A stretch of DNA of 60,103 nt, the filler included, from Dirinaria sp. TL-2023a (taxonomy: Eukaryota): NCBI GenBank assembly GCA_051941275.1. It is 5 parts of 5 records of this genome, joined end to end, with 100 filler letters (N's around TTAATTAATTAA, not from the genome) between each part and the next. Parts side by side here need not be neighbours in the genome. Positions count along the whole stretch, not along the records: positions 36,160 to 48,094 come from JAVEBF010000804.1; 4 more parts are not named here. One strand, 5' to 3'. The position numbers and the translations under genes were made by a program. Below the pieces are notes generated by a model. The model did not search any database, was not told where the DNA came from, and worked only from the letters and a program-made list of their open reading frames with translations. Each line of letters opens with the position of its first letter. The stretch's first letter is position 1. Shown here one piece after another: positions 36,160-50,898 of this stretch.

Positions 36160-36834
36160 AAGGGTCGGGATGGCGAAAATGCCGGTGTATAGCATCAAGC
36201 AGAGTTTATTGGAGGAGAGCGTACCAAGAGCGATTTGCCCGGCGAGCAGCTGTCCACCAGTAGCGAAAACGGCGAACACGATCGTGCCAAAGGAAAGAAC
36301 CTCGCGACCAAGGGGGCCAAAAAGAATGTACCCGGCATCCCCCATATTATGGACTGGATTGAGCCTGATCAGTAGGATGCATGATATCAAGCTGAACTCG
36401 AGGACTAAAGATTGAGACGGGGAATGTTCAAAATCAAAGACGCTTGCTCGTAAATCAACTTGCTCTGGAAAGCAGTCGGCCAATTGATTTGAAGATTACA
36501 TACCCTCCGGATGCCTCAACTTGAACTTGATCAGTATCCAAGCCGTGAAAAGGCCGAACGCGCCCAAGAAGACGATGGCGACCACACCAGGCACGAGCCC
36601 GACGACGGCCAACGAGCTGGGCAAGGATAGCATGCCATTGCTGACAATCTCTGCTATCATGAGAACAGCGACGAGCGGCCATGACAAGGTCTTGTAGTGG
36701 ATCTGATGGTTCTCTTCCGAGCCGAAAACATCAACGGCGTGGTAGCCACCGTCAGGGCCCTCGATCTCTGATATGTGGTCGAGGTAAGGCGAGGAGCCAT
36801 TGTCTTTCTCGCCCTTGCTCAGGCTCATATCCAT
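36160..36834 (-). CDS. Neutral amino acid transporter (Aa_trans/Mtr-like), 3'-truncated
   Basis: IHYKTLSW...MIAEIVSNGMLSLPS...FKLRHPE|VHNMGDAGYILFG across a GTATGT...CAG intron. Confidence 0.88.
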
Positions 36835-37417
36835 TACTTACGTGTAGCTTGTCGGGAACAAGCATATTGAGACGAAAGGAAGGAGGAGCAGAGACGATGC
36901 TGATAGACATATCAATGTGCCGCCAGATAGTCGGGGTGGTATCTGCTGCTCTAGAGTCTACTAGGCCCTCGGTAGGAGCTGAGGGCGGGATGCGGGCGCA
37001 GGCCGAGTGATGTCACGATCGAGAACGGTCGACCTGTTAGAGTCCCGTACCTTGCCTTATGCATCTTAAGATACTATTAAGTATGAGAATCTCTGTTTCC
37101 TGGTTGATTGATACCTAAGACGAGGTTAGGGAACCCTTGAGCGACCCGACCATAAATGACCGAGGGGCCTACTTGAGATACAGTGTGATACAAGGAAATT
37201 GTACTAGAGATGATAGCAAATTAGTGGTCTGAAATGAAACTATTTATGTTGAACATGGGTTACAAGAATACTTCAGGGGTCTTTGCGAGTCAACTCCTCA
37301 GGTACTCGTACTGTTATCTACGACCCTCAAACCTTCGTCCCAACGCCTTGCTGCCACATGACATGATTCATGACAAGAGCTTCAGGACCACATATGCAAG
37401 CAAGCCGATCTGACGGC

Positions 37418-40094
37418 TCAAAACTTCTCCATCATGTTCTTTCGCACCGTCCACATCCGGAGCCGCTTCCCGTAGATATACATTGGGATCGTAGTCAATA
37501 AGCAGGCGATTTGGATGCCTCCAATCGCCACGAAAACATCCTTCGAGCCGTCCGCTTCCAGCCACTTGTTGAAAAAGAGTGAAAAGACGAACCCATGGAA
37601 GATGTCTGCCACAATCCTGTCAGCACAAAGTCTTCCCACCCCAATCGGCGAAACAGTTAGACAGGGAGCAACTCACTCTTGGAGAAGTTCAGCGTGACCA
37701 GCGCTTCTCCCGCGTATTGCCGGTAGCTGTCCACAGCAAAGGTAATCGACGTGGTACTCCCCAGACTGCATCCGAAGCTGATGATCCCGAAAAAGATCGT
37801 CGGCACAATCCACCTGTCCTTTTCGGCAGCACTCCAGCCGAAGCCCATCAGCCCGATGACAGTCGCGAGTGTCACCGGTATGGCCATTACAAGGCGAAAC
37901 TCGGGCTCGTACACGCCTCCGTTACGACGACTCATGAATCGCACAAGTATATCACTAACCTTGCCCGCCACCGCAGTTCCCAGCACACCGCCGATAAAAG
38001 GTGACAGGTAGACAAGGCCGGTGCCCAGTGCGGAGAAATTGTAGGTTGCTTTATCGCGATAGATAGACGTGACCGATTCGGAAAGAACGATGAGCCAGCC
38101 GATGCTGAGGGAATAGACGAGAGTAGACCAGAGGATACCCGGGTATGCGAAGAGGATAAACGGACGGATTGCAACTTTGAGCCAGTTCTCGTGACGGATA
38201 TGGCCATTCCATGGTTTGAGCGTCTGCCGGAACGTCTTCGTAGGCTGCGTGCGAAGGTAAGTGGTGTAGCGTGCGATACCTGGCGTCGCTGTTGAAAGGT
38301 CAGCAGTCACAGGCTCAGTCCTTGCAGTGTCAGGCGGCGTCCGGGGTGCCACGTCATGCTTGGGCTGTTCTTCCCCCTCACTTTCCTTGCTTGCATAATA
38401 CGGAGAGTGGGAACTGCGAAGACTAGGCGTCGGCGGCGCTTGGCTGGCCAGCGAAGCGCTAGAAGGACGGCTCCCAGGGGAATGAGGCAAAGGGACTGTT
38501 GAGGGGTCTAGTAGTGCGCCAGGATTGGCCTTTTCGGGATCGGCAGGGTCTTGAGGACCTATCCGGTTGCCCAAAGCATCGACGGGGTCCGTAGAGTGAG
38601 ACTCCTCGGCAAACCCAACGTGGTGTTGGTTCTTCCTTTGACGTCTCTCAGCGATGGTTTCTGGTTCATTGACCGCCGATGATCCAGCGTCGTGAATTGC
38701 CGGCATTGTCGTGTCGGGGTTGCCTTCAGCTTTACTGAGCATATTGCTCTTCTCACCGTGATGCAACGGAGGGTGGAGTAATTGAGAAAGGGAACGGAAA
38801 TAAGTCTTTCGAGTCTTCTTTTGAGGCCTTGGAGTACGATCCCAGACAGTCTCTGGAACAAATAGAAAGACCGTAACCAAACAGAATCCAACCACAACGG
38901 CAATTATCCTATTGAAAATTAGCAAAATTGCGGTATACGGTCCCTGCTTCTTGCTGTGTCCTCACCAGAAAACCCATCTCCAACTGAGGCCCTGGATGAT
39001 TGCAGCGCTGACCAATGGAATTAAATTCTTACCACCCAGCAAAAGCAACGTGTATATGCCAAGTCGGAACGCTCTTTCGTGGAGGAAAAAAATCTCTGCG
39101 ATGGTCGCAGAGGGTAAGCATTCGACGGGGCTGACCGCAAGCCCCATGAAAATTCTTGCGACAACCAGAGACGAATAATTTGGGGAGACCGCGCACCATA
39201 CCGCACTGATTATGAAGAGGATAATACCAACCAAGTACACGGGGCGTTTGCCGAACAATATAGCTGTTGGGGAGGCCAAAACCGAGCCAATACCAAGGCC
39301 TAACATGTAGAAGCCAGTTGTGAGAGCGACCTTGGGGACGCTGACCGAGTACGTTTGAGATACATTGTCGAAACCGGCCGCCAGAACGGGTGTCATGCCA
39401 CCTCCAAGCGCACAGTAGAAGCCAAGCGACAATAAGGCGATGTCTCGTCTCCAGGCAGGCCAATTCAAAGGGTCATTCATCGAATCGTCCGGCTGTGGGT
39501 CTAAGATAATCTTGTTGTCCGCAGTCCTCTTTTTGTCCTCTTCAATGCTTCTCTCTGACTCTCGCCTGAACATTGGGGGTCTGGTACTGGAAGGGGTTCT
39601 CGTACTACTTCTCGTACTAGAAGGGCGTCTCGCACTTGGGGGAAATGGTGAGGGCAACGATGAGGCGGATGTTCTTGCTGGAGCATTGCGAAGTCCCAGC
39701 GGCTCATTGCGAGTGGTATTTGACATGAGAAGCACAGAGCCTATAACGGGAAAGCATTAGCGACCAATACCTTGACAACCAAAAAGGCAGAAAATTGAGG
39801 ATGCGTTCGGTTTTGCGGTTGGACAAGTTGGATTTGGGTCCCAGCAAACTTACCAGGCACTTCATCGGTCTCCTTGTCATTGAGCACACCTAGACTCCAT
39901 TTCTCCGGTCTCACCTTGATCTCGTCATACTGGTCGGATGATGCTCTTGAGGTGGGGGATGCTTTTGGAGTTTTGGAGACGCCGAGTATTCGTTTCCACC
40001 TAGGTGGTTTCGGATCTGGAGCCTTTTCGGGCTCAATGGCGGCGTCATGATGCTCTCGAAACGGCAAATCACCGGCTTGATCTTTAGCACTCAT
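37418..40094 (-). CDS. MFS transporter (HOL1-like), multi-exon
   Basis: WSLGVLNDKETDEVPG|SVLL, PQPDDSMNDPLNWP, FGKRPVY, TIAEIFFLHERAFRLG, RRNGGVYEPEFRL and YIYGKRLR. Confidence 0.9.
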
Positions 40095-41384
40095 GATGAA
40101 AAGATGCGAAGTATGGATAAGGCGTGGTCGAGGGGGGAGTATGTAGGAGTTGACAAAGCCAATTATGTACACGGATCAATTCATAGAGACATTGATCATA
40201 TGTTCAACGTAGCATAGCTGTATGGGCTGAAGATGAGCAACTTCGAAATAAATGAATTGACGAAGGAGATAGGTGTCCAGGACAAAGGAAAGTGGCGCAA
40301 TGGGGAAAATGATCCTCCATGATGGAGGCTGGCATGAGAGCATGGTGTGAATATATTGTCAATCGCTGCTAGCCCTCAGGCTAGGCGTGGAAGTTTGAAC
40401 ATGCCGTTGAGTAGTGCAGCAGGTGCAATGGCCACGGGGAAGTTTCATGTTGAGTCAGAGCAGCCAGTGGGCCAACGGTTATCGAGTTGCATCACATGGA
40501 TCTGGTTTGTGCTTTGGGCTTTATTTGGAAGGCTTAGTGTGCTTCGCCCGGTTTGACCGAATCGTCAAACCTGCCTAGCGCAGCGGTGTAGAAAGTTTCT
40601 GCGATAAAAGGTATCTTATCTGCAGGATGAAACCATCATCTGCGATATTGCCTTAAGTTCTCAGCTATTGCGACCAACTACGCCTACTAGTTACAGTAGT
40701 ACTCACGAAACATTAACAATCCATCTCCAAAGCTCCGTTGAGATACTGCTCAACGCTCTCCAACGGTCCGAAACTTTGCTCCCCCCAATTCCGGCATCAC
40801 CGCTCTTTGTCCACGTTGGCCTACAAGCGCTTAGATAGGCCGTTGCAGCATGCGTCCCATGCTCACATGGCCATCTCCGATTTAACTTCCAAACGTCGCG
40901 GCTTGGCTTCGATTGGGCAAATTTGATAGTCGCTATTTTATTGCGACTTGAGCTTTCTGGAGCTTCCGTCATGATCCGGCCATGCGGCTACTCATGCAGA
41001 CCTTAGGGATGCAGACCCTGTGCATCTCACAGCCGCCCATCCGGACGTTTTCGAACGAAGCGCCAAGATTTGGCCTGGAGTTTGTCTCATTCGACCACCG
41101 ATTCTAGTACATATATCAGGTATTCTAGGAACTGCTTAATTGCTCAGTAGTAAGTGCAACGGCTGGCCTCAATCCAAGGACTCCTAACGAGGAAATGTGC
41201 ACCCATGAGGAGCAGGCTGTTGTAGACCTTGAAAGATGAGTATATACAATAAGGTACATATGTTGCCCATGTTGCGCTCGGCTATTTACATCATCATAGC
41301 ATGACATACCATGAAATCCATACCTTGTCCTTCTAAGTCCATCTATATAAATACATTATGTCTTAAACAAGGTCGTGCCTGTGA

Positions 41385-43258
41385 TCACTGCCGCAATGAA
41401 ATTCCCCATTGGTTCAGCTGCGTGCATCTCTTCTTCTGATCTGCCGGCACCGTCTCCATGACCGTATTGCTCACGGCATTGCCACCGCCTTGGATCAATA
41501 TCCGGCGTTGAGTGCTCGGACCCCCCCACTGATCCCATGTTGGGCTACCCGGTAATCGAGCGACATTTGGGTCGTAGAAGCGGATGAAGCTGGTCCAGTA
41601 TGACTGCATAAGCTGGACGACATCCGCGTTGGAACCACCGGGTTTGTAGCTCGCGGGTGCTGATGGAGAATCCCAGATAGCGTTAAGTTCAGCAACGTGA
41701 GGAACACCATAGCCGTTTTTCAGAGAAGCTGGGTCAGTGACGTTGTAGTGGTAGCTGTACACTCTACTCGAACGATTGTGGGCGTAGTATTGACTACTGA
41801 TGTAGTCGCCTGTACAAACGTAGCGGAGTTCGCCATATGCAGCAGCAGTGGAGCGCCAGTATTCGCCAGCAGAGCGGTAATGCGGATAGGCAGACGGTTT
41901 GTACAGAGACTGTATTGTAGAAAGTTGAGTGCTGTTGATGAGTGGGAATTGTGCTCGAATGAACGAATTCGAGTCATCAACTGAGTCTGTCGACTTCGGG
42001 ACGAATATTGTTCCTTCGTTGGCGACATCGCCATAGATGGCTGGCACGTTGTGGAAGCGACCATCTTCGAAAAGTGCGAGAGTCAGATCTTGCAGGAAAT
42101 CATTGTCGACCACTGGATTGTACGAAAATAGCGGATTCTGGTCGGCTCCAGGAAAAGGAGTACCGATGTTTTGTTTCTGAAGATCTTGACTTGAGAGCCC
42201 GCGAAGGCAGGCCAGCGTGTCGTTGTGTCCGGTATCTCTCTCAGCGCATTTGGTACGATTGACGAGCTCATCATATTGGTATTGAGAGTCGGGAACGGTG
42301 CGAACAGCGCCAAAAGATTGCGACTCAGCAGCTGTGGCATGGAACAGATTGTCATCTCGACCACCGTATGCTCCAACTTGCAAAGCCACAGAGCCGGCAC
42401 CTGCGCTGGCACCTCCCATTACGACGTGGCCTGGGTCCCCTCCAAATTTGCTGATGTGATCTTGTACCCATTGCAAAGCCTTTCGCTGATCCAGTAAGCC
42501 ATTGTTTAAGCTAGCGTTGCGTTGTATCTCTGCGCTTGCAAGGAAACCGTAAAGTGAGACGCGGTAATTGAAGTTGACTATAACAATGCTGAAACCTGAG
42601 GCTTTCACGAGGCTGGTGCCGTTTAGATTGGGGTCTGCGTTCGAATTGAAACCTCCACCCTGTATGAAGAAATACACGGGAAACTTCGAATCTGTGGTGA
42701 AGTTCGAAGGGGCGTACACATCGAGGAACAGACAGTCTTCGCTCTGACTCTGAGAGATAGGCTGATCTGTAACCTCAGAACGCGTACCTAGGCAGGTTGG
42801 GCCATGCTAGGAGAGCTATAAGATATGGTCAGATGATGGGGTCCAGATCAACGCACCTGGCTTGCTTTCTGGAGCGTCGCGTTATATGGAGGGTCTTGAG
42901 GGGCGGCGAAGCGGAGCTCGGCCAGTGGAGCTGCAGCATAACGAATCCCCAACCATTGACTTACACCATGCCGGAAATCATTCCCCTGGTACCTGCTGTA
43001 GCCAAGGTCGACGACAGGAAGCGCAGTATTGTTTGTGTGATGGCCATGCCTCAGTCCCAGCGTCAAGCCGAGACTGAGCCCGAGGACGAGTCCAATGAGT
43101 AGTATGATGGCACTGACCACAATGGCTGAATTCCTTCTGCTGTGGAGTACACCCTTGTGGAAAGCGCCCTTCTCCGGTTTATACTCATGTTGGATCGAGC
43201 CTGTAGCGCTTGAGTCGGGTGTAGATGAAGCGGCGCGCCAGAATTTCCTCGGAATCAT
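41385..43258 (-). CDS. Type-B carboxylesterase/lipase with N-terminal membrane anchor
   Basis: VVDLGY, WLGIRYAAAP...LRFAAP, SEDCLFLDVYAP, QGGGF oxyanion hole, nucleophile motif GASAG, NEG and GVPHVAE; one intron near 42808-42856. Confidence 0.9.
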
Positions 43259-43938
43259 GGTCAAAGAGATGAAGACAAGCGACCCGACGAGCAATGTTGC
43301 GCATGCGGTCAGATTATTGGAGTATTGCGGCCATTGCGTGTAGCAGGAATCCGCTGAGTGCATGTAGAAGAATGAGAGACAGCGATCCAAGGTGCGAGAG
43401 GGGAGCGGAAACAGTGAAAACCCCGAGAACGAACGGTTCTCAACATTATCATGATGAATGTCAGGACCGAAGGAGATGACTATTTTAGTGACGTTGAACT
43501 TGGCATGGGTGGCAGGTGAAGGCCCGGAGTATCATTGGGGGAAGGGAACAACAAGGGAGCAAGGGAGGGTAATCAGTAGTAAGGTAGGTAATCATGGCAA
43601 TCCTGATGCAAATCTCTGCCAAGCCTTCCGAATTGGATCCGAAAGAGAGAGGCTGCATCGCACTACTCACGCTAGGAGGCAGACGGCCAATTGACTCGCA
43701 GCAGATTCTCAACCATCAAGTGGATCTCGTCGATGCAAAGCTTGGTATCGGACTTATTTGTGACGTACATGCACATACATGAGATAAGGTACCTTGCCTG
43801 ATGTAAATAGTGGCGTTTCAACACACATCGATACCTTCAAGTCAGTTTGAATAAGGTATCGATAACGAGTTTCAACGATATTATTACCATTTCTGTAGCA
43901 TCTTTGCGTCTTTCGCCTGCCCATCCAGGTCATCAACT

Positions 43939-46255
43939 ATGGGCCAACCATCGTTTCAGGCATCCAATGCCATCATCTATCTCACCTACGGAGCATTTCT
44001 GTAATACTGGTCATACCTCAAACGCTTGCGGGACTGGACTGATTGCTGTCGTGCGTTCTAGTGTTTCTGGCCTCGGGGTTGCGTGGCATTGGAGGCATCA
44101 GTCGAAATCGGAATTCCTGGCAAGCAATCGCACGCAGAAGGGTTAGCCCTATACTAGCAACGCCATGAATCTTCAGACCTCAACGCATATTGTTGGCTGA
44201 CCGGAAACTAGCATTTCCACTTGTATTGAACTTCGTAGCTTCGGGTGAGTGCAGTGGCGCATACACCATGGCTTCTTGAGAAGCGGCAGCATCGGTCGGC
44301 ATAAACGCATAGCAGCATATGTGAATATGGTTGCGGAGAAACAAGGGACGCAGCATGACTAGGTTCGTACAACTAGAAATAACGCTTGCCGATGTCTAGA
44401 GTTTTGCTCTGCTAGCCAACCATGGGCTGGTCGAGCAGGCTTTGGATAGAGGTTTGGCGCGGCTTCACTACGGGCGCGGATTGCTCGAAGGCTCTTTCGA
44501 TCCACCTCTGTGCTCTGGCCACAGAGAGATCTTGGATGACCTGCCTGCATGAAGCTGAGATTGTACCGTAACACTCGATCAAGATAATGCTTGCGTGAGG
44601 AACGTGCTGCCGCTTCCCCCTTCCTACTCTTTCGTATAGAGATCGCTGACTGTAGGTCAATTTCATTCATGGGCAGCGCTTGGGTCTGGAATTCTATTCT
44701 CCTACCCTGAAATAGCTACAATTGCTGGCGTTCAAGGACTTGTCGTCTATACGCTGTCCTCCTCCTTACCTCTCTTGATTTTCGGGTTCCTGGGACCAAT
44801 TATTCGGAGGAAATGCCCCGAAGGCTTCGTTTTGACAGAGTGGACGAGGCAGAGATATGGTATTGTTACTGCGCTGTACTTAAGCCTTCTAACGTAAGGG
44901 GAACAGCATTTGGTCGCTTGAGTATTTCGATATCTAAGAAACTCCCAGGCTTGTTACCCTCTTTCTTTATATGGTGGCAGAGCTTTCAGCGCTTCAACAG
45001 ATCATCGAAGCCATGACTGGGTTCAGTGGCCTAGCCGCGGTAATCGTTGAATGTGCTGTCACGACTATTTACACAAGTAAGACTTCTCCCTCCTTCAGGC
45101 TGAAAACCGTGAGCTCATGGCCCTTCTAGCTCTGGGGGGCTTTCGTATCTCCTTTCTTACCGACAATATCCAGGGCGCTATGGTCTTAGGCCTAATCGTT
45201 CTCGCTGTCATCACTGTTGGAGTTGAAACCAATGTTGACAAAGCCTTGGTGGATTCCTCAGGACTCCTGAACGCCAGCTTGCTGGGATGGCAACTAATAT
45301 ACATCTTGCCCGTTGCCATCCTCACCAATGACTTTTTCATCTCGGGCTTCTGGATGAGAACATTCGCTTCCAAAACGGACAAGGATCTAGTGATTGGGAC
45401 TTCGATTGCTACTGTGGCTGTAACAATAATATTGACCCTCGTCGGCACTACTGGCTTGCTCGCCGCTTGGACAGGAGCCTGGCCTGGAAATCCGCCTCAA
45501 GAGGGAAGCATTGCCTTCTTCCTGCTGCTGGAGCAGCTTCCTGCATGGGTCGTTGGAATTGTGCTTGTGATGACAATATCGCTCAGCACCGCTGCTTTCG
45601 ATAGTTTTCAATCGGCCATGGTGTCCACCGCCAGCAACGACCTCTTCCGCAATAAGCTTAATCTCATCTATGTCCGCATTGCAGTTGTCCTCATCATCTT
45701 CCCTGTGGTGGTGGTTGCCCTGAAGAGCCCAAGTGTGTTGCAAATTTATCTGATCTCCGACCTTGTCAGCGCCAGTTCGATCCCGGTACTTGTCATAGGC
45801 CTCAGCAACAAGTGCTACTGGTGGCGTGGATTTGAAGTCGTCGTTGGAGGCCTGGGCGGATTGCTGACAGTTTTCATATTCGGAACCATCTACTACGGCA
45901 ATGCAGATGATGGTGCGAATCTCTTGCTCCTGGAAGGTGGTCTTTATGCCGAGGATTGGAGTGTTTTCGGTAATGATCCCCAGGGTACGGTGTGTTTTTT
46001 GGAACAGCTGGTGACTCTTGATCAGGTGCTTTTGTTGCTGCCCCAGTCGGAGGCCTCTTATGGGCGGCTGGAGCCTTCCTCTTTCGTGTATTGTGCCTCT
46101 GGATTATGGCCAAGGCCAAAGGTCACCGATTTGATGCCTTCGATCGCCCTCACACATCGAAAGCGGCTAATCCTGTTCGAGGGGAGGATGCGCAGGAAGA
46201 AGAACAAGAGCCGGTCAGCGTGGAGGTTTCGTCTACTAAGGGCAGGTTCTTCTAG
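43939..46255 (+). CDS. Sodium:solute symporter-family transporter, NCU01977/DUR31 type (putative thiamine or precursor uptake)
   Basis: Spliced product MGQPSFQASNAIIYLTYGAFL-VSGLGVAWHW...SNRTQK-AFPLVLNFVAS-ALGSGILFSYPEIA...RRKCPEGFVLTEWTRQRYG...GGFRISFLTDNIQG...KGRFF*. Six introns; intron 3 (44245-44676) holds a TPP aptamer. Confidence 0.88.
44459..44613 (+). promoter_or_regulatory. Intronic TPP (THI-box) riboswitch aptamer
   Basis: GCTGAGA (44554-44560), TACCGT pairing with ACGG at 44470, CTCGATCAAGATAATGCTTGCGTGAGGA (P4/P5 with GATAA loop), and P1 formed by GCGGC..CAC with GTG..GCCGC. Confidence 0.92.
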
Positions 46256-46429
46256 GATGACGGCTGCAACCATCCAGTGCTAGCAGCAGATGGTCGTACA
46301 CGTCTATGTTCGATGCAGATATTGATTTTCGCAAGTCTAGCTCCTGTCCAGTCTTTCTCTATCTCTGGAGAAGCTCCCTTTCTGGTCCGTGAACTCTTTA
46401 TGTAGATATAGTAAACATGGGCGCTTCAC

Positions 46430-47575
46430 CTACATAGTAAGCGGTACTTTCTTTCCGGCTACGATATCCTCGACATCGCTCTCGTTTGCTGTTCCCCAGA
46501 TCTTCCAGCCAGGAGCCTCTTTGCCCTTCATCATCCTCAACTGGACGACTAAATACTCCGTAATGTCCTTCGTTTCCCCCGTGCCGGGCACGATCGTCTC
46601 TTCCTTCCCAGATCGTCTCCGCTTCGTCAGGCTTTGCTTCGACCGCAGCCGCACAACCACCTGCCGCATGCCACATTCCTTAAGACCGGGCACAGGGAGT
46701 GAAGTCGCTCGATTGGAAACCACACGGGGCCTTCCGATCGGGTTATAATATTTCCACTCGAAGCGCTCATTGTGGCGTCGGGCTTTGATGCGGGAACTTA
46801 AGTCTTTGTAGAGACCTTCGGTGCAAAGCGCTTTCAGCTTCTCCAGATCGCCCCTGACAGTTTGGTTTTTCACGCCGTCAGTCCTCAAAAGTCATGTAGC
46901 TGGAGCCGGAGGCGCTCAAAGGAGATGCTCGAGGGTAGCGTACCTGGCGAAAGCAGTCCACATATTCCACTGCATGCGCGCTGCCAATCGAGCTATTTTC
47001 CTCCGACGGTATAGTCTTGGCCATGGTCTGCTCCTCAGCAAGAATTTGTAGTGGATCAAGCTAGCAACGGACATTTTCTTCTGATCAGCATCCATCAACC
47101 AAGTTAAAGAAAAAAGGCTGCTCCGGCAGGAAACGAAAAGACACACCCTTTCAAATCCTGGAACCGCGACTTCAGTCTATGCCATTCTACACGCGCTCGT
47201 TGTCTCGGTGCCTTGAACATAGAAGGCAATTTATCACCGGTGGGCATAATGAAGGTAACTGTTTCCCCCGCCCCAGCTCCGTTAGCTAAGGGGAGCTCTG
47301 GCAAGACACACACGCTGGAAAAAACTGGGGGTGTACTCGCAAGGCAGAAGTCCGTTATCCTCCGGGTAATCCATGCCTTGCGGCGTGAACTCGAGTCTCT
47401 TGACATCGTCCTCCAGGACTTGCATTCTCCGGATCTCGTTCGCCTCGGCCCGAGGCGTAAAGGGGCTGCGCAGAAGCTGAGTCGTGGAAAGAGGACGGGA
47501 GCGTGTCGAATGGTAGCATGGTGGAGGATAGAGGAAGGCGCATTGGGTGCGCCACTTGGGAAGTCGCAGGGGCAT
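46430..47575 (-). CDS. MBA1: Mitochondrial Tim44-like domain protein (Mba1/mL45-like), 4 exons
   Basis: Presequence MPLRLPKWR..., DNGLLP|TFIMPTG, AFAR|GDLEKLKALC, PRVVSNRA, MRQVVVRLRSKQSL and EYLVVQ...WKIWGT. Confidence 0.72.
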
Positions 47576-47785
47576 GACTACCTTGTAGTATTTTTCTCGT
47601 GGACAGGAATCAATCCCATTCCACATTCATTGAGCTTAAGAACTCCAATATATTCCAGATATCCTCATAGATTATCATTGCTAGCAGAGCATACACACAC
47701 GGCCGAGGCGAGGCCACAAACAAAACACAACTATCTCTTGGCGCCAAGCGAAGCGGAATCCACTGAAAAAAAGAAGAGAGAGAAA

Positions 47786-48094
47786 ATGGACCAAGCGAAC
47801 GCGAGCAGCACCACCAGCAGACCCGTCCGCCACACCACCACCCAGAAGGTCAAAAAGGCCACGCACGGTGTGCGACTCTCGGGGATCGGCAAGTTTGACG
47901 GCCGAAATTTCTCCCTGGCTTCCACCCCGCCTCCCAGCTATGAAGTCACGACGAAAGTCGACCAAGAAGAAACAATCACCACCTGGACCGCCGCCGCCGC
48001 AGCAGCACCGGCAGCAGCAGCACCGGTAGCAGCAGAGGTACAAGAAGTCGCTCCCTCAGACCCCTCATCAGAAAGCCCCCCATCAGAAAGCCCC
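47786..48094 (+). CDS. Low-complexity hypothetical protein, 3'-truncated
   Basis: ATG in an A-rich context; frame stays open to the contig end; no recognised domain. Confidence 0.4.
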
Positions 48095-48932: not shown

Positions 48933-50898
48933 TCATCGAGGGCGAGGAGGCGCCCCGCGGTTATTATTATTGCCTCTACCTCTGCCTCTGCCTCTCCCGC
49001 CACGGGCACCTCCACCTCCACCTCCACCTCCACCTCCACCACGCCCACCACGGCCTCGACCACGGCCTGGATCTGGAGCAGGCGGTACGACGTCTTCATC
49101 ATCGTCGTCGGAGTCGCTTTCGGAGTCGGAGAAATCGCTCTCTGTGTCTGTCTCGTCGTCATCGTCGTCGTCGTCTGAGAAGGCATCACTATGATAGGGG
49201 AGGGGGTGTTAGTTTGGAAATATAGATATGGATGGAATTAGCTATTTGGGTGTAAGGCTGAAAGAGGCTGGGGCTTTTGTTTTGTGGAAAATGAGTTTTT
49301 CAAACGAGGGGCAGGGAAGAATCAGCGTTTAGGATTTTGCGGGAGTGAAAGACGGGCTGAACTCAGCCTGAAGTAATGTCGACTCCAGGACAATCTTCGC
49401 GTAAGAAAAGAAGAAACAATGTAGGCTATCGACAAGCTAAGGAGCAAACGACCTACCCGAGATCCCCCTGGCCCCCGAAACCAATCCCCACGTCTCCGCC
49501 ATCGCCACCTTCAAGCTCCCATAGCCGCATATAGCATCCGTTCTGCGGGTTGTTGAAATGCCTGTACGGATTCCCCTGCTCCAGCCAAGAGCTACAGAGG
49601 TAGCAGAAATGGCTCTTGCACTTGAAGCAAATCATATGATTGCAGCCCAAGCTCTTCTGGCACGGGGCAGTGCACGTAGGGCACGGCGTCGAATGAAGTT
49701 TGATATAATCCTCAGACGCCCTTTCCTCGGCGGAGATTTCTCCCGGGTTGCGGCTTGTGCAGTATTTGAATTCGCCGTGCCAGGAGGCTTTGCAGACTTG
49801 GCAGAAGGCGAAGTTGCAATCTTCACAGATCGCGAGGCGGTCGGCTGGGGGCAGAGTCCAGGGTTTGCTGTCATTCTTGCCAGTACTGGATTGGCGGTCT
49901 GGTGTGTACTGGCCCATGTTACTAAGCGATCTGGCGTCTGCCGCTGCTTCTCTGGCAGCTGTGCGAGCAGGGCCTTGGCACCATTTACGTGGACACCAGA
50001 CGGTAGTAGGGTCTGACTCATACTTCTTCTTCCGCTTGAGGGTGATATAGCGCTGCACCTGTTCCTGACTGAGGGGGATCTGGAGCAGCTCGCTTGGATC
50101 AAGTGTACGGTCGTCATCTCGACCTTCTGTCTGTGGCAGATCTTCTCCGCATTTCGGTGTTATACACTTCACGCTTCCGACATCTCCCTCGGTGATACAT
50201 GAGTTGAAAAAGTCCTGAAGACATTGCACGCAAAAGACGTGCTCGCAATCTAGGAATTGGTGGCACTTGGAACCTTTCTTCGGTTCCAAGCAGATGCCAC
50301 ATTCATAGGTTCCGGACTCGAATTTGGCGCGCTTGGCTTTGAGATCAAAGTCGAGCAGCGCGAGTTTCAAGTCGTTCGATACTTCCAAAAATTCCCCGTC
50401 CTCTTTGACCAGACCGAAACCGTTCTCTGCAACTTCCCGTAGATGGTCGATATATGCGAATACCACTTGATCCCTGCCCATGTCTTCCCATATCGTACGC
50501 CCCGATTCCTTCAGCTGCCTAAGTCGCCAGTCCGGAAGCCAAGGCGGTTCCGTCAGTAGGCGAAAGCAGGGTGGCGTTTCTTTTGGATACCCCTCCGGAA
50601 GGCCAATTCTTAGTGTGAGAGGTGGCAAGTGGGCTAGCTTCTGAACCTCTTGCGCAGCAACTTCGACGGTAGCGTGAGAGGCCTCATCGGACGGTGGAGG
50701 AGTTGGTAGACGGTTTTCTGGATTCACACCGGCAGGAAACCGAATCGCTAAAGGCTCGATGGGCTCCACTGGGATGTCAATAGTTGCAGAAAATGGATCA
50801 GAAGAATCAATAGCTAGCTCGGGATAGATGGCAGCAACACTGGATATTTCGACTGCCCGTTCATCATCTCCGCCTTCTGTATCGTCGTCGTTGCCCAT
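48933..50898 (-). CDS. ITT1: RWD-RING-IBR-RING (RBR) E3 ubiquitin ligase, Itt1/RNF14-like
   Basis: RWD (HLPPLTL...YP), RING1 CGICLEPKKG...CEHVFCVQC, IBR WCPRKWC...CEDC...CQVC and RING2 CPTC...GCNHMIC...HFCYLC. Intron 49189-49456 leads to an acidic plus RGG tail. Confidence 0.85.

Follow-up and report, generated by a model that had tools for sequence, protein, structure and literature searches.

Two fungal systems have been described in which a thiamine pyrophosphate (TPP) riboswitch resides in an intron of a symporter gene. In Neurospora crassa NCU01977, the aptamer lies near the 3' end of a long intron in the coding region, which also holds internal decoy donors (alternative 5' splice sites) and premature stops. 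Deletions and compensatory mutations reported by Li & Breaker 2013 (PMC3597705) established that pairing between two elements, alpha and alpha', drives use of the distal donor S1. In Candida, the NCU01977 ortholog DUR31 carries a TPP aptamer in a native intron, whose splicing is described as thiamine-dependent by Donovan et al. 2018 (PMC5997356). Here we analyze intron 3 (44245-44676, + strand) of a predicted sodium:solute symporter gene from Dirinaria sp. TL-2023a (assembly GCA_051941275.1). The window, i.e., the whole stretch of DNA that was analyzed, comprises 60,103 nucleotides, filler included, in five joined parts, and the gene is within the part from JAVEBF010000804.1 (positions 36,160-48,094). 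The intron is very probably a TPP riboswitch of the NCU01977/DUR31 kind ('Type II') that would use alternative splicing to switch off a thiamine importer. It is a new example of a known switch, and the established picture of the system is unchanged.

A preliminary description of this DNA, made from the sequence alone, had already pointed to NCU01977 and DUR31. This likeness is right, and is made tighter by protein identities of 70-76%, an intron at the same codon and an alpha/alpha' helix, i.e., an expression platform that was absent from that description. A further group, the NMT1 and THI4 switches of filamentous fungi (Type I), shares the aptamer class and the repression by TPP via choice of 5' splice site, as presented in PMC3597705 and PMC5882874. 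However, the NMT1 and THI4 switches reside in the 5' untranslated region (UTR), their P4/P5 masks the proximal donor and upstream open reading frames are involved. The window's intron, in contrast, lies in the coding region, with a platform at the shoulder of P1 and predicted repression by premature termination.

The host gene and its long intron

The DUR31/NCU01977-type gene spans 43939-46255 on the + strand. Its seven exons (43939-44000, 44062-44141, 44212-44244, 44677-44893, 44949-45076, 45130-45969 and 46026-46255) join into an open frame of 1590 nt, i.e., 529 codons plus stop, according to a scripted translation of the spliced model. The introns measure, in order, 61, 70, 432, 55, 53 and 56 nt, with intron 3 about seven times as long as the rest. 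It begins with the S1 donor GUGAGU at 44245 and ends with the acceptor AG at 44675-44676 (GT..AG). If S1 is not used, translation continuing from exon 3 meets an in-frame TGA at 44277-44279, and the protein is cut after 69 residues. The preliminary description had listed this TGA, a GCTGAC at 44645 and an intron 3 far longer than the others; all three were confirmed, with 432 nt versus 53-70 nt in the gene model and GCTGAC at 44645-44650, 27 nt before the acceptor. The fungal branch consensus is CTRAY, and GCUGAC is accordingly a probable branch site. An antisense open reading frame at 44359-44670 (103 aa) was rejected as a gene: it matches no Pfam family and overlaps poorly conserved sequence of P3 and the spacer.

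Related loci were taken from metagenome contigs, found via a protein alignment of 16 homologues: 302 pattern matches led to 166 confirmed relatives, from which 80 loci were kept. For analysis of the intron, the comparative set consists of 45 distinct introns in which S1 was located (that of the window and 44 others), with lengths of 420-742 nt. The 44 other introns, and that of N. crassa, are at the same codon position as intron 3. The exon before the intron always ends in ...(L/F)NF(I/V)A(S/A)|G-GT (45/45 introns), and the exon-3 end ...LNF(I/V)AS|G-GT is common to the window, the published NCU01977 sequence and the 44 other introns.

Exon 6 has 86-87% identity to proteins from metagenome-assembled genomes of Teloschistales lichen fungi, most of which have PF00474 on record; these are the best of 389 relatives that reached E <= 0.001 with this exon, out of 8000 candidates scored. 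The N. crassa protein P0121, whose cluster matches the NCU01977 sequence, has 76% identity to the window in exon 4 and 70% in exon 6. The motif LGSGILF begins at residue 60 in both proteins, and therefore the intron is at the same codon. The 90% cluster of the Sordaria match includes the 'urea transporter' of N. crassa OR74A, together with a shorter annotated form. Pfam searches with single exons of the window matched no family. With whole proteins, the PF00474 scores are 34.4 bits for P0003, an 87%-identical homologue, and 39.8 bits for the N. crassa protein, over residues ~40-400 and with a cut-off of 22.8. Because full-length homologues exceed this sodium:solute symporter cut-off only modestly, the lack of matches for single exons is understandable.

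Based on these sequence comparisons, the host protein belongs to the DUR31 thiamine-transporter clade (Dur31, clade V) and is an ortholog of the N. crassa protein. Donovan et al. place the clade of NCU01977 and DUR31 at a distance from the true Dur3 urea/polyamine transporters. Unlike the intron studied here, those of Candida DUR31 are budding-yeast introns, and the comparison of the window's protein was with the N. crassa member only. Many database sources label the homologues 'urea transporter', and the text of PMC5997356 presents precursor transport as a hypothesis for algal orthologs and transport itself as demonstrated only in Candida. It might therefore be argued that the switch is as described here, but that what the protein takes up is a precursor of thiamine, such as HMP or AmMP, or some other solute. 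We consider this unlikely. According to PMC5997356, deletion of DUR31 leads to pyrithiamine resistance in two Candida species, DUR31 put back in C. albicans complements the deletion, and DUR31 acts as a thiamine transporter. Because this ortholog of NCU01977 transports thiamine in Candida, the best reading of the window's gene is a thiamine transporter repressed by TPP, where transport is known from Candida only.

The aptamer in intron 3

When 43800-45000 was searched with E-value reporting, the Rfam TPP family RF00059 matched 44460-44619 on the + strand along its full length (model positions 1-105/105), with 37.1 bits and an E-value of 2.3e-5, as computed for 1.2 kb x 4227 Rfam families. Apart from this, Rfam reported only DUF805b, twice and at noise level (E 1.6 and 4.2). 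All 105 model positions are aligned, and P1, P2, P4, P5, J3/2 and L5 are in place. However, P3 contains an insertion of 74 nt, P3a is missing, and the score is below the family's gathering score of 54.3 bits, which is the operational cut-off. These two departures from the model account for the shortfall. The preliminary description had claimed a full THI-box in this intron, and each part that it named was located. The RF00059 check that it proposed has a divided outcome: the match is significant by E-value, but not by gathering score.

From P1 to P1, the aptamer occupies 44459-44613 (+ strand, like all of its parts, which were checked by coordinate). P1 consists of 44459-44463 and 44466-44468 paired with 44604-44606 and 44609-44613, and P2 of 44470-44473 paired with 44566-44569. 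P3 is a long, irregular hairpin (44476-44555), and is followed by J3/2, CUGAGA, at 44555-44560. P4 pairs 44574-44577 with 44596-44599, and P5 pairs 44580-44583 with 44590-44593, enclosing L5, AUAAUG, at 44584-44589. P1 contains a 2x2 internal loop, in which it differs from NCU01977. Mukherjee et al. (PMC5882874) describe GAGAU, GCG and UAAU as the pyrimidine, pyrophosphate and closing contacts of the ligand. All of these contact motifs are present in the window (GAGAU at 44557-44561, GCG in J4/5 at 44593-44595 and UAAU in L5 at 44585-44588), and they are invariant across 48 aligned aptamers.

With window positions 44550-44620 as the query, nhmmer detected the 3' half of the aptamer in 65 of the 80 related loci, each time on the strand of the gene. 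Twelve of the remaining 15 loci stop short of the intron, and three (L006, L008 and L046) have an intron without an aptamer. Each of the 14 orthologous loci scanned with Rfam has a full-length TPP match, at 31.4-49.1 bits, i.e., every one below 54.3. Since these loci are also sub-threshold, the score of 37.1 bits is typical of the orthologous class. In a MAFFT alignment of 48 distinct aptamers, some cells of the outer P1 helix are misaligned. The core is invariant, P3 varies in length and sequence, and pairing is found in 91.4% of cells versus 29-41% when the partners are slid. A comparison by eye with N. crassa revealed a few differences in the 3' half of the aptamer, which are outside the core, and the N. 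crassa ortholog binds TPP in in-line probing experiments (legend of Supp. Fig. S5, PMC3597705). Judged by its sequence, then, the aptamer is of the RF00059 class, being significant by E-value and conservation, not by the curated cut-off.

Within distal P3 (44496-44505 and 44521-44530), two motifs, GGAUCCAAC... and ...GGAGAGAUC, are conserved in most of the 48 aptamers, and both also occur in the published N. crassa sequence. A construct with truncated P3 kept its regulation in experiments of Li & Breaker (PMC3597705).

The alpha/alpha' helix as probable expression platform

The alpha element, GAAGCGGCAGCA, is located at 44280-44291 (+), 35 nt downstream of S1, and the alpha' element, UGCUGCCGCUUC, at 44605-44616 (+), 60 nt before the 3' splice site. 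Their perfect 12-bp pairing is the sole inverted repeat in 44200-44720, and one extra G-U pair lengthens the helix (12 Watson-Crick pairs plus one G-U). A perfect repeat of at least 12 bp arose in 3 of 1000 dinucleotide-preserving shuffles of the intron. Nine of the 12 alpha' nucleotides belong to the 3' strand of P1, and because of this overlap P1 and the alpha/alpha' helix are mutually exclusive. The calculated duplex energy is -26.9 kcal/mol for alpha/alpha' versus -15.6 kcal/mol for the P1 strands, and the alpha/alpha' helix is present in the minimum free energy (MFE) fold of the whole intron.

These features resemble those of NCU01977. As described in PMC3597705, alpha has the consensus RGCGGYRRY, and the distances from S1 to alpha and from alpha' to the acceptor are both commonly below 60 nt. 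Within 44280-44291, AGCGGCAGC fits this consensus, while the alpha' of the window, at 60 nt from the acceptor, is at the edge of the published spacing. In both systems, alpha is ~35-50 nt after S1, and alpha' forms the right shoulder of P1 at a distance of ~60 nt from the acceptor. A difference is that the window's intron has 432 nt, whereas 550-650 nt from S1 to the acceptor is common in the species set of PMC3597705. In the scheme of Mukherjee et al. (PMC5882874), the intron is of Type II by mechanism, and its length falls between the Type III and Type II ranges.

In 31 of the 45 introns, alpha and alpha' pair over 11 or more contiguous positions when G-U is counted, and the core motif of alpha is present in 41. 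Considering unique alpha/alpha' pairs, the seven core positions are paired in 34 of 34 cases, and compensatory double changes are present at position -2 (AT 16, GC 8) and position -3 (GC 16, GT 6, AT 3, TA 1). The set thus confirms the alpha/alpha' model in new lineages, and in introns as short as ~420 nt.

In 25 of the 45 introns, 30-39 nt separate the start of the intron from its first in-frame stop. In many orthologs, this stop is a TGA that abuts or overlaps the 5' edge of alpha (...TGAAGCGG...), as in the window at 44277-44291. Such an arrangement couples the stop physically to the pairing element.

The aptamer-less introns of L006 (529-761), L008 (421-655) and L046 are short (~230-300 nt) and lie at the same codon, after ...LNFIAAG. 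Each keeps an alpha-like element, GAGCGGTAGC or ATGCGGTAGC, and L006 and L008 have remnants of the aptamer's 3' end without CUGAGA. The pattern suggests that the aptamer was lost in a lineage-specific manner.

A conserved decoy donor

The window's intron has an alternative, or decoy, 5' splice site, S2, with the sequence AG|GUUCGU at 44363-44368 (+), which is supported by a joint in an RNA contig (see below) and by conservation. GTTCGT occurs exactly once in 42 of the 45 distinct introns, 113-257 nt into the intron, and in all 42 an in-frame stop lies upstream of it. In the 5' part of the intron, the window and 11 close loci have conserved islands at S1, alpha and AGGTTCGTA, amid otherwise free sequence, and the GTTCGT island is kept in 12 of the 12. 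By its sequence, this donor is S3 of N. crassa (Supp. Fig. S8), which product sizes place 249 nt after S1 (703 - 454). A single conserved decoy donor stands out from the comparative set. Where three internal donors were mapped in N. crassa (S2-S4), the window has one that is clearly conserved. In PMC3597705, S3 is used upon addition of thiamine, no single alternative donor is essential, and mutation of S3 had no effect in a reporter.

The string AG|GUUCGU(A) (window 44363-44371) is nearly invariant amid unconserved intron sequence, yet looks weak as a donor. We found no consistent pairing partner for GUUCGU across 42 introns. Pairing with P4/P5 does not exceed chance, being equalled or surpassed by 63 of 500 shuffles, and the 5' strand of P2, UACGGGC, which was noticed by eye, is the best partner in only 8 of the 42 introns, with energies like those of shuffles. 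As for earlier reports of the conservation, the motif string is absent from the main text of PMC3597705, and the consulted parts of PMC5882874 do not mention it.

Given a functional aptamer and this donor, it could be proposed that the intron acts like NMT1 and THI4 (Type I/III): P4/P5 would mask the 44363 donor in the unliganded state, TPP would free it, and alpha/alpha' would be incidental. The intron's length, between those of Type III (200-400) and Type II (650-900) in PMC5882874, would suit this proposal, as would the fact that the intron has, in essence, a single good internal donor and that a stop separates S1 from S2. Moreover, some thiamine response remained after deletion of alpha in PMC3597705, where a route through P4-P5 is suggested. 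However, the chance-level pairing of the 44363 region with P4/P5, the failure of the partner search and the conservation of the alpha/alpha' helix with compensatory changes make an NMT1/THI4-like mode very unlikely.

Even within a switch based on alpha/alpha', the AG|GUUCGU donor may be a dedicated, sequence-specific part of the platform, and not just a cryptic donor among several that are redundant. It might represent the second route that Li & Breaker inferred from the residual thiamine response after deletion of alpha.

Transcripts of a near relative

RNA data were available as assembled contigs from four runs of one lichen metatranscriptome sample, which are 95-99% alike to the window. In these contigs, introns 1, 2, 4 and 6 are removed at precisely the predicted positions. 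For intron 5, the donor agrees (45076|45077), and the contigs rejoin at 45133 with three other letters between, which is a local peculiarity of this relative, such that the acceptor is not confirmed to the base.

Intron 3 is processed in more than one way. A 3044-nt contig retains it (44211-44893) with the other five introns removed, while a 2469-nt contig joins 44362 to 44677 (GT..AG). In addition, a third run has one contig that ends at 44362 and another that runs from 44450 into exon 4. The preliminary description had predicted that retention, or use of a downstream donor, would truncate the protein, and indeed the TGA at 44277 stops both observed forms. These contigs show that a near relative processes intron 3 alternatively, in both of the ways predicted for the OFF state, which is not regulation itself. 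Between the 3044-nt contig and the window, intron 3 has nine differences (44321, 44337, 44436, 44454, 44498, 44511, 44538, 44629 and 44631), all of them outside alpha, alpha' and the aptamer core.

Since only the retained and 44363-spliced forms were assembled, the mycobiont of lichen thalli may keep the importer in its OFF forms. If so, the ratio of isoforms could report the fungal partner's thiamine status in situ in the symbiosis. Taking together this idea and that of the 44363 donor as a dedicated part of the platform, we regard them as tentative and, jointly, somewhat doubtful.

In general, the RNA contigs differ from the window at ~2-3% of positions, and therefore derive from a different strain or sister species. 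Relative to the window, 9 nt are inserted after 46318, in the 3' UTR, and small stretches of the 5' UTR are deleted at 43857-43883.

Proposed mechanism and evidence against it

By analogy to the experiments in N. crassa and Candida, we infer the binding of TPP, the direction of the switch and the thiamine substrate. At low TPP, the aptamer would be unliganded, and alpha' (44605-44616) would pair with alpha (44280-44291) downstream of S1. The 12-bp helix would loop out ~310 nt, including the 44363 donor, and bring S1 (44245) near the acceptor (44676). The whole of intron 3 would then be removed, leading to the 529-residue symporter. At high TPP, the ligand would lock P1 and thereby sequester alpha', so that the advantage of S1 is lost. 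The 44363 donor would be used, or the intron kept, and translation would end at the TGA at 44277 with a 69-residue stub.

Several results weigh against this interpretation. In addition to the sub-threshold RF00059 score, no Rfam family reached its gathering threshold when the whole window was scanned. Folded by itself, the aptamer has an MFE structure that departs from the canonical TPP shape and is no more stable than those of shuffled sequences (z 0.12), and the canonical fold, when imposed by constraints, is 2.3 kcal/mol above this MFE (-48.5 vs -50.8 kcal/mol). The z-score for folding of the whole intron is -0.67. As modelled, then, thermodynamic folding carries no evidence, except for the appearance of the alpha/alpha' helix in the MFE fold. 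In the comparative data, 10 of the 45 introns have fewer than nine contiguous alpha/alpha' pairs, and only one of 21 aptamer pairs (P1, P2, P4, P5) has a double change; a covariation score as high was reached by 20 of 500 shuffles. Covariation is uninformative here, because the aptamer pairs are almost invariant across the 48 aptamers. Finally, the productive junction, 44244|44677, was found neither in the RNA contigs nor in the 80 related loci, and for this reason the use of S1 in the window's organism rests on homology. Because contigs drop rare forms, its absence from them is not evidence that the productive form is absent. The RNA evidence itself consists of contigs of a single sample, from an organism 95-99% alike and with unspecified thiamine status. 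Unlike that of NCU01977, which was demonstrated by experiment, the switch in the window is predicted from its sequence and a relative's contigs.

These weaknesses might suggest that the aptamer is a decaying relic that no longer binds TPP, within an intron that is merely long and poorly spliced and so gives rise to retained and cryptic transcripts; although the low Rfam score, the unseen productive junction and the aptamer-less introns of L006, L008 and L046 (by which loss does happen) fit such decay, it is scarcely credible, given that the ligand-contact motifs and every core helix are intact, that 48 distinct aptamers share the same core amid freely diverging intron sequence, that all nine differences from the RNA contig avoid alpha, alpha' and the core, and that sub-threshold scores are the rule in the orthologous class (14/14).

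Consequences for annotation and for lichen biology

The preliminary description had called the system invisible to annotation based on open reading frames, which is borne out by existing gene models. In 6 of 16 database protein models of the homologues (P0018, P0040, P0056, P0063, P0094 and P0096), the sequence directly upstream of LGSGILF, i.e., at the riboswitch intron, is aberrant or inserted. N. crassa has an annotated 398-aa 'variant'. Evidently, gene predictors mis-handle the riboswitch intron. The switch is missed by default Rfam scans as well as by open reading frame annotation, and gene models are damaged. Similarly, the family is labelled 'urea transporter', although its characterised member imports thiamine.

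In the collection of papers searched, none combines 'TPP riboswitch' and 'lichen', and the ten best matches of a less strict search were all of the Bacillus licheniformis type. For lichen fungi, the locus could offer a ready-made molecular marker of vitamin B1 status.

Neighbouring genes

No thiamine-related clustering was found among two neighbouring genes in the window. One encodes an RWD and IBR (RBR-type) protein at 49453-50898 (- strand). The second is a carboxylesterase-family gene at 41385-43390 (- strand), which is divergent from the symporter gene, with ~550 bp between the two start codons.

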